From: a virus
DNA: 64,000 bases
Strand: one strand, 5' to 3'
UHGV virus genome: UHGV-0098755
Positions within the stretch are counted from its first letter, which is position 1. Every line of letters begins with the position of its first letter. Shown here one piece after another: positions 34,283-34,480 of the stretch. The notes below the pieces were generated by a model, which was not told the DNA's origin, made no database searches, and was given only the letters and a program-made list of their open reading frames with translations. A program made the translations under genes and the position numbers.

Positions 34283-34480
34283 TTAGTAAATTGATTTACC
34301 AAAGTATTTGTACCAAGTCGGACGTTGATCAATTTTTTCATCTAAGCGTGCTTGATTTATCGCAATGGACGCTTCGGACGGGTCATAATTTCCTCCAAGT
34401 AGTTGATGAATATATAGTATCAAAACCCTTGGAGGAAGTAAACAACTATTTTTCTGAAGCGCCTGAAATATATTTTTCAA
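34283..34480 (-). pseudogene. denV: denV (endonuclease V) 3' remnant
   Basis: Only the last ~32 codons ([32 protein letters not shown]) match recalled T4 EndoV C-terminus; upstream codons unrelated; an early promoter lies inside the ORF. Confidence 0.6.
34412..34443 (-). promoter_or_regulatory. T4 early-type promoter inside the denV remnant
   Basis: GTTTACT ... TGATACTATATAT. Confidence 0.45.

Follow-up and report, generated by a model that had tools for sequence, protein, structure and literature searches.

Deletions in the rII region of phage T4 are known to arise spontaneously between short direct repeats. Spontaneous deletions between such repeats have likewise been described in lacI of Escherichia coli (Albertini et al. 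1982, as cited in PMC4122927). In T4-like phages, the locus that contains the lysozyme gene e, the internal-protein genes and denV, which encodes endonuclease V (a pyrimidine-dimer DNA glycosylase/AP lyase), is known to be hyperplastic, with internal-protein genes that have been shuffled (PMC4122927), and hyperplastic regions of T4-like genomes carry promoter-early stem-loop (PeSL) cassettes (Arbiol 2010; Comeau 2014, PMC4122927). Here, we analysed this locus in a stretch of 64,000 nucleotides (hereafter the window) from the virus genome UHGV-0098755. We conclude with high confidence that the feature covered by an open reading frame (ORF) of 65 amino acids (aa) is a denV pseudogene that arose through a repeat-mediated internal deletion of 310 bp.

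The locus resembles that of T4 denV in its context and in having a homologous promoter, hairpin, Shine-Dalgarno sequence (SD) and ATG, and the last 32 codons of the remnant are about 80–90% identical to those of intact DenV. It differs from T4 denV in that codons 3–105 have been deleted and the rest is frameshifted, which makes it a pseudogene. As in the lacI and rII deletions, the lost segment is bounded by direct repeats (13 bp, 12/13 identical) of which one hybrid copy is left; unlike those deletions, the allele is no laboratory mutant and occurs as a natural polymorphism in two genera. With the PeSL cassettes it shares an early promoter, a stem-loop and the SD and ATG of a downstream gene within a hyperplastic internal-protein region. 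However, the published stem-loops lie just upstream of the promoter, whereas in the window the stem encloses the −10 box and forms base pairs with the SD. The allele is a new natural example of a well-known kind of gene loss, with a practical value that is mainly one of annotation and with modest population-genetic interest.

The region of the window in question is the e (lysozyme)/internal-protein/denV locus of a T4-like phage, with every gene on the minus strand. Gene e (34724–35212; Pfam Phage_lysozyme match) is followed by the upstream neighbour of denV, a 93-aa internal head protein gene with a capsid-targeting-type N-terminus (34446–34727; PHROG 3499 “internal head protein”, E = 1e-46), and denV itself by an 86-aa internal head protein gene (34016–34276; PHROG 2667, E = 2e-19) and a 192-aa gene (33376–33954; PHROG 5341 “internal virion protein”). 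In megablast searches, the 901 bp around the denV remnant were 99–99.9% identical to Tequatrovirus genomes such as BF15, G4498 and G8 and 95–98% identical to many further T4-like genomes; for a 25-kb stretch of the window, no record in the collection exceeded ~97% identity. The gene order e-ip93-denV-ip86-ipIII-like differs from the T4 order e-ipIII-ipII-denV, which is a known polymorphism of the hyperplastic internal-protein locus and older than the denV deletion. The 86-aa gene occupies the same position in the phages Lutter, G2133, JK45, Pu-Krd-SF4 and Pu-Krd-SF5, all of which have an intact denV. Two overlapping CDS are annotated for this gene in Lutter (1619–1874 of the compared segment) and a shorter CDS in G2133 (494–670 of the compared segment) and Pu-Krd-SF5 (474–653), which suggests a frameshift or truncation of the neighbour gene in some relatives whose denV is intact.

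The relatives found with the 901-bp query split into those that matched in one piece and those that matched in two, and the two-piece matches span ~1,210 bp and have an annotated endonuclease V gene. When the window was aligned with G4498 and Lutter, the flanks proved identical or near-identical around a single gap of 310 columns, with no foreign sequence. Kept upstream of the gap are the 3′ end of e, the entire 93-aa gene, the promoter, and the SD (GGAGG) and ATG (34386–34384, minus strand) of denV, both of them identical to those of the intact Lutter gene; downstream of it, the sequence picks up at denV codon 105/106 and runs to the stop codon (34285–34283, minus strand). An intact denV measures 414 nt, of which the window has 104 nt left, a loss of 310 nt (3n+1). 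Two direct repeats of 13 bp that agree at 12 of 13 positions lie 310 bp apart in the intact G2133 and Pu-Krd-SF4 alleles: the left repeat AATTATGACCCGT spans the SD, the ATG and the Thr and Arg codons, and the right repeat AATTATGTCCCGT is found at codons 103–107 (N N Y V P S). Alignments with the intact alleles place one hybrid copy, AATTATGACCCGT, at the deletion junction (34378..34390, minus strand). The junction reads AATTATGACCCGT|CCG in the window and most other carriers and AATTATGTCCCGT|CCG in phage Shinka, which has ATGT instead of ATGA, the T being the base of the right-hand repeat.

One hybrid copy in place of two direct repeats is what slipped mispairing or short-homology recombination typically leaves behind, and judging from these repeats a mechanism of this type is likely. 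The two junction variants would indicate two crossover points within the repeat; the A/T difference in Shinka could also have come about later by point mutation, without a second deletion. In the proposed course of events, an ancestor with a denV allele of the G2133/Lutter type lost 310 bp between the imperfect repeats, probably because these mispaired by slippage as the DNA was replicated or recombined over their short homology, and one hybrid repeat stayed behind. Codons 3–105, including the entire Pfam glycosylase domain, were lost and the frame was shifted. The early promoter of denV was left untouched, as were its SD, its ATG and the hairpin that would sequester the SD. Translation from the kept SD and ATG would then end at nine codons, the 32 C-terminal codons would no longer be translated from the ATG, and the promoter would probably still fire early, now reading into the downstream internal-protein genes. 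Since T4 denV lacks the right-hand repeat, the deletion hot spot is specific to the G2133/Lutter-type allele. A PeSL-mediated deletion was considered and rejected, since both ends of the deletion fall within the AATTATG.CCCGT repeats and not between two PeSLs.

The 3′ remnant of denV, delimited by tblastn, alignment with Lutter and PHROG 1183, consists of the third base of codon 105, codons 106–137 and the stop codon (34283..34382, minus strand) and is no longer in frame with the start codon that was kept. With the intact Lutter DenV (137 aa) as the query, tblastn matched aa 102–137 to positions 34393..34286 (minus strand; 86% identity, E = 7e-17), and no second significant match was found in the 64-kb window. 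PHROG 1183 (endonuclease V) aligned to residues 24–62 of the 65-aa ORF over profile positions 100–138 of 139, and the C-terminal segment QRPTWYKY[YF]GK is homologous to DenV in both searches, by descent only. The Pfam family PF03013 (Pyr_excise) covers residues 1–87 of intact Lutter DenV (3e-14) and is absent from both the 65-aa ORF and the 33-aa remnant at E-values up to 10. Over its full length, the intact DenV of the clade can be aligned with solved structures of T4 endonuclease V, 2END and 1VAS among them (E about 1e-81). Of the catalytic N-terminus, which in the T4 enzyme has to be contiguous and in frame with Glu23 and the basic residues, Met-Thr-Arg is kept, codons 3–105 are gone and the shifted frame offers no in-frame continuation: because 310 bp is 3n+1, the deletion causes a frameshift and translation from the original ATG stops after nine codons (MTRPKRPLR and a stop; 34357..34386, minus strand). 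As the whole glycosylase domain has been deleted and the remnant is not translated from its native start, activity should be lost, and on sequence grounds it is near certain that denV is non-functional in this phage. There is no second denV in the window or in one complete relative, BF15 (167,801 bp, with the same junction), where tblastn found only the same 36-residue DenV fragment.

The 65-aa ORF (34283–34480) is the old C-terminal frame, open backwards through the SD, the hairpin, the promoter and the tail of the 93-aa gene as far as a TTG codon, and as such it owes its existence to mechanical ORF calling and is not a gene. Much of the original prediction, which was made from the DNA letters without database searches, agrees with these results: it had matched only the last ~32 codons to endonuclease V, noted an early promoter at 34412–34443 and an overlap with the 3′ end of the 93-aa gene (which amounts to the last 35 nt), and proposed that a functional denV is lacking; the check it named, a search for an intact copy elsewhere in the genome, found none in the window and in BF15. 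The upstream part of the ORF, which it described as unrelated, is not coding sequence: here the denV promoter, its hairpin, the SD and the ATG, all of them intact, are read in the wrong frame. The promoter had also been placed inside the denV fragment, and this has to be corrected, as its position is 5′ of the denV start codon, just as in the intact-denV phages. Synthesis of the DenV C-terminus by way of another start codon or a frameshift was rejected as well, given that there is no SD, that the region is taken up by the promoter and hairpin, and that the catalytic part is absent.

The denV early promoter (34414..34443, minus strand) consists of G-TTTACT (−35), a 17-nt spacer and TACTAT (−10), and positions 34414–34442 match the T4/PST early-promoter consensus TTTACW-N17-TAYWAT from PMC4122927 exactly. 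The window contains 16 matches to this consensus against 0.44 expected from shuffled sequences, all of them on the minus strand at sites from 9917 to 42678, which provides a map of candidate early promoters for the window. A generic sigma-70 scan missed the denV promoter, as its hexamers agree with TTGACA/TATAAT at 8 of 12 positions and fall under the cut-off. A matching promoter is annotated in Lutter (NC_054924), and homologous sequence is present upstream of T4 denV. At position 34412 (minus strand), 2 nt downstream of the −10 hexamer, the window has a T where all 10 compared relatives have a C (TACTATATATTC vs TACTATACATTC), a difference seen only in the window among the aligned sequences.

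Directly after the −35 box follows a 10-nt sequence, TTCCTCCAAG, that is the perfect complement of CTTGGAGGAA; these form the 5′ and 3′ arms of a predicted hairpin (34390..34437, minus strand; RNA fold −20.7 kcal/mol, z = −2.7) whose 3′ arm includes the denV SD and whose loop holds the −10 box. The same anti-SD/SD core within a different stem sequence was found in the denV leaders of T4 (arms TCTCCTGTAG/CTACAGGAGA) and Kanagawavirus Q7622 (ATCTCCGTTTG/CAAACGGAGAT). Individual folds showed an equivalent hairpin also in Gelderlandvirus CGG4-1 and, more weakly, in teqhad, and none in Marfavirus and Muldoonvirus. An alignment of five denV leaders (MAFFT with RNAalifold), in which Kanagawavirus was misaligned, gave a weak consensus of −8.5 kcal/mol with a positive covariation term; the comparison relies on the individual folds, and no statistical covariation is claimed. 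Transcripts that read in from upstream would fold and hide the SD, whereas those that begin at the embedded promoter would lack the 5′ arm and be translatable, which suggests that DenV is translated from promoter-proximal transcripts only. The same hairpin/SD logic has been described for the T4 genes e, 49, soc and I-TevI. In the window, this predicted leader device has stayed intact and would now serve a nine-codon ORF only. The 86-aa gene starts ~138 nt downstream of the denV −10 box, and since a scan found no terminator-like site in between, the denV promoter probably still feeds that gene.

Two other readings of the locus were weighed. The original prediction saw a gene replacement, in which the 5′ part of denV was swapped for a cassette with an internal-protein-like gene and an early promoter. 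The locus is indeed hyperplastic with shuffled internal proteins (PMC4122927), and the gene order in the window does differ from that of T4. Nonetheless, the intact-denV phages Lutter, G2133, JK45, Pu-Krd-SF4 and Pu-Krd-SF5 have the same 93-aa gene and promoter directly upstream of denV at 97–100% identity, so no gene was imported; T4, with ipII in the upstream position, shows a homologous promoter and hairpin before denV; and the window differs from its intact-denV relatives by 310 missing bases only, a pure gap without unrelated sequence. A replacement is accordingly very improbable, and this part of the prediction is contradicted by the alignment. We give a similarly small chance to the view that the 65-aa ORF, or a shorter in-frame version, is translated into a small functional protein with the C-terminal DNA-binding segment of DenV. 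The frame is open, the WYKYF segment is conserved and some depositors used the label “endonuclease” (B1.1, JM17, FL18), but the ORF starts at a TTG without an SD inside the upstream gene, its first 30 residues are what the promoter and hairpin yield when translated, a transcript made from the local promoter would have its 5′ end downstream of the TTG, and a 1-bp deletion breaks the frame in JM10. Such a product would also lack the Pfam domain and the catalytic residues of T4 endonuclease V, namely Thr2, with its alpha-amino group as the nucleophile, and Glu23, both in the missing part.

A sequencing or assembly artefact, in which 310 bp collapsed between the repeats, would likewise leave a missing segment bounded by short direct repeats. 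Repeats of 13 bp are, however, too short to collapse assemblies, and the identical junction is found in 16 records (14 phages) from independent laboratories, with flanking SNPs that are linked but diverse. Contiguity across the junction in this many independently obtained records (16 of the 228 that matched) argues against an artefact, which we regard as extremely unlikely.

A 120-nt query across the junction was compared with the public records, and about 7% of the 228 matching records were contiguous over the junction. The carriers are the phages G4498, G8, BF15, Phaginator, 235Ecol030PP, B1.1, F27, JM17, FL18, Shinka, JM10, FL12, FL23 and FL44, which originate from Germany, Poland, Denmark, the USA and other places; their classification puts them in the genera Tequatrovirus and Mosigvirus. 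In JM10, FL12, FL23 and FL44, the query matched over 119 instead of 120 nt. In JM10 the shortfall comes from gaps of a single base, both before the promoter and within the remnant (GATGAAAAAA -> GATAAAAAA), the latter of the kind expected for a decaying pseudogene. Several remnant haplotypes exist, with N/S, D/A and F/Y at three codons. The haplotypes and JM10 fit a decaying pseudogene that has been recombined among phages, has arisen more than once, or both. DenV is otherwise well conserved in the phage collection: among 1,120 records with a match, 1,093 span 80% or more of the protein, and the other 27 are partial. Two partial matches, OK018184 (CT01) and OM386662 (ESCO47), comprise residues 1–41 or 1–35 only, which suggests further independent denV truncations of another type. 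A scan of IMG/VR with a 32-mer across the junction matched one contig (169,650 bp) and gave no evidence that the deleted allele is common among metagenomic viral contigs. The public annotation of one and the same denV pseudogene is inconsistent: the remnant is labelled “endonuclease” in ON871820 (B1.1), PP400779 (JM17) and PP400780 (FL18), “hypothetical protein” in the JM10/FL group, and is unannotated in most other carriers. For annotation, the 65-aa ORF should not be called as a gene, whichever of these three treatments the fragment has received in public genomes.

The locus is also a clean natural case of repeat-mediated deletion in a T-even genome. Therapy or biocontrol phages with the deleted allele would be expected to be easier to inactivate by UV. 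A bolder reading is that the 13-bp repeats form a recurrent hot spot and that the null allele is kept in Tequatrovirus and Mosigvirus by selection rather than drift, which we consider unlikely. Possible reasons for such selection are that in dark habitats, gut and manure, excising dimers brings no benefit or carries a cost, or that an early promoter ~310 bp nearer to the downstream internal-protein genes alters their timing; if this reading were true, UV-repair capacity would be a balanced polymorphism in T-even phages.

Phage T2 is reportedly about twice as UV-sensitive as T4, a difference in the u/v gene said to go back to the work of Streisinger in 1956 and Harm in 1963. By analogy, the phage in the window would be without phage-encoded excision of pyrimidine dimers, and its UV sensitivity in the dark would be close to that of T4 v− mutants or T2. 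The classical difference between T2 and T4 would then have at least one additional genetic basis in nature. The parallel with T2 drawn in the original prediction holds at the level of the expected phenotype only. In the complete T2 genome (163,825 bp), no DenV similarity was detected (best tblastn E-value 6.7), nor was a DenV remnant found at the syntenic locus (e, ipIV, a 110-aa ORF and vs.7); the absence in T2 is hence an event separate from the internal deletion. T2 lacks denV completely, whereas the window keeps the denV promoter, start codon and 3′ end. A literature search on the loss of denV in T2 or T4-like phages found nothing specific. At the same T2 locus, an unannotated gap between T2_126 and ipIV (NC_054931, 62097–62440; ~2597–2941 of the compared segment) is homologous to the N-terminal part of a 195-aa ORF of the window (32659–33246, PHROG 1488), and the T2 copy of this ORF appears to be frameshifted by a 1-nt deletion relative to the window.
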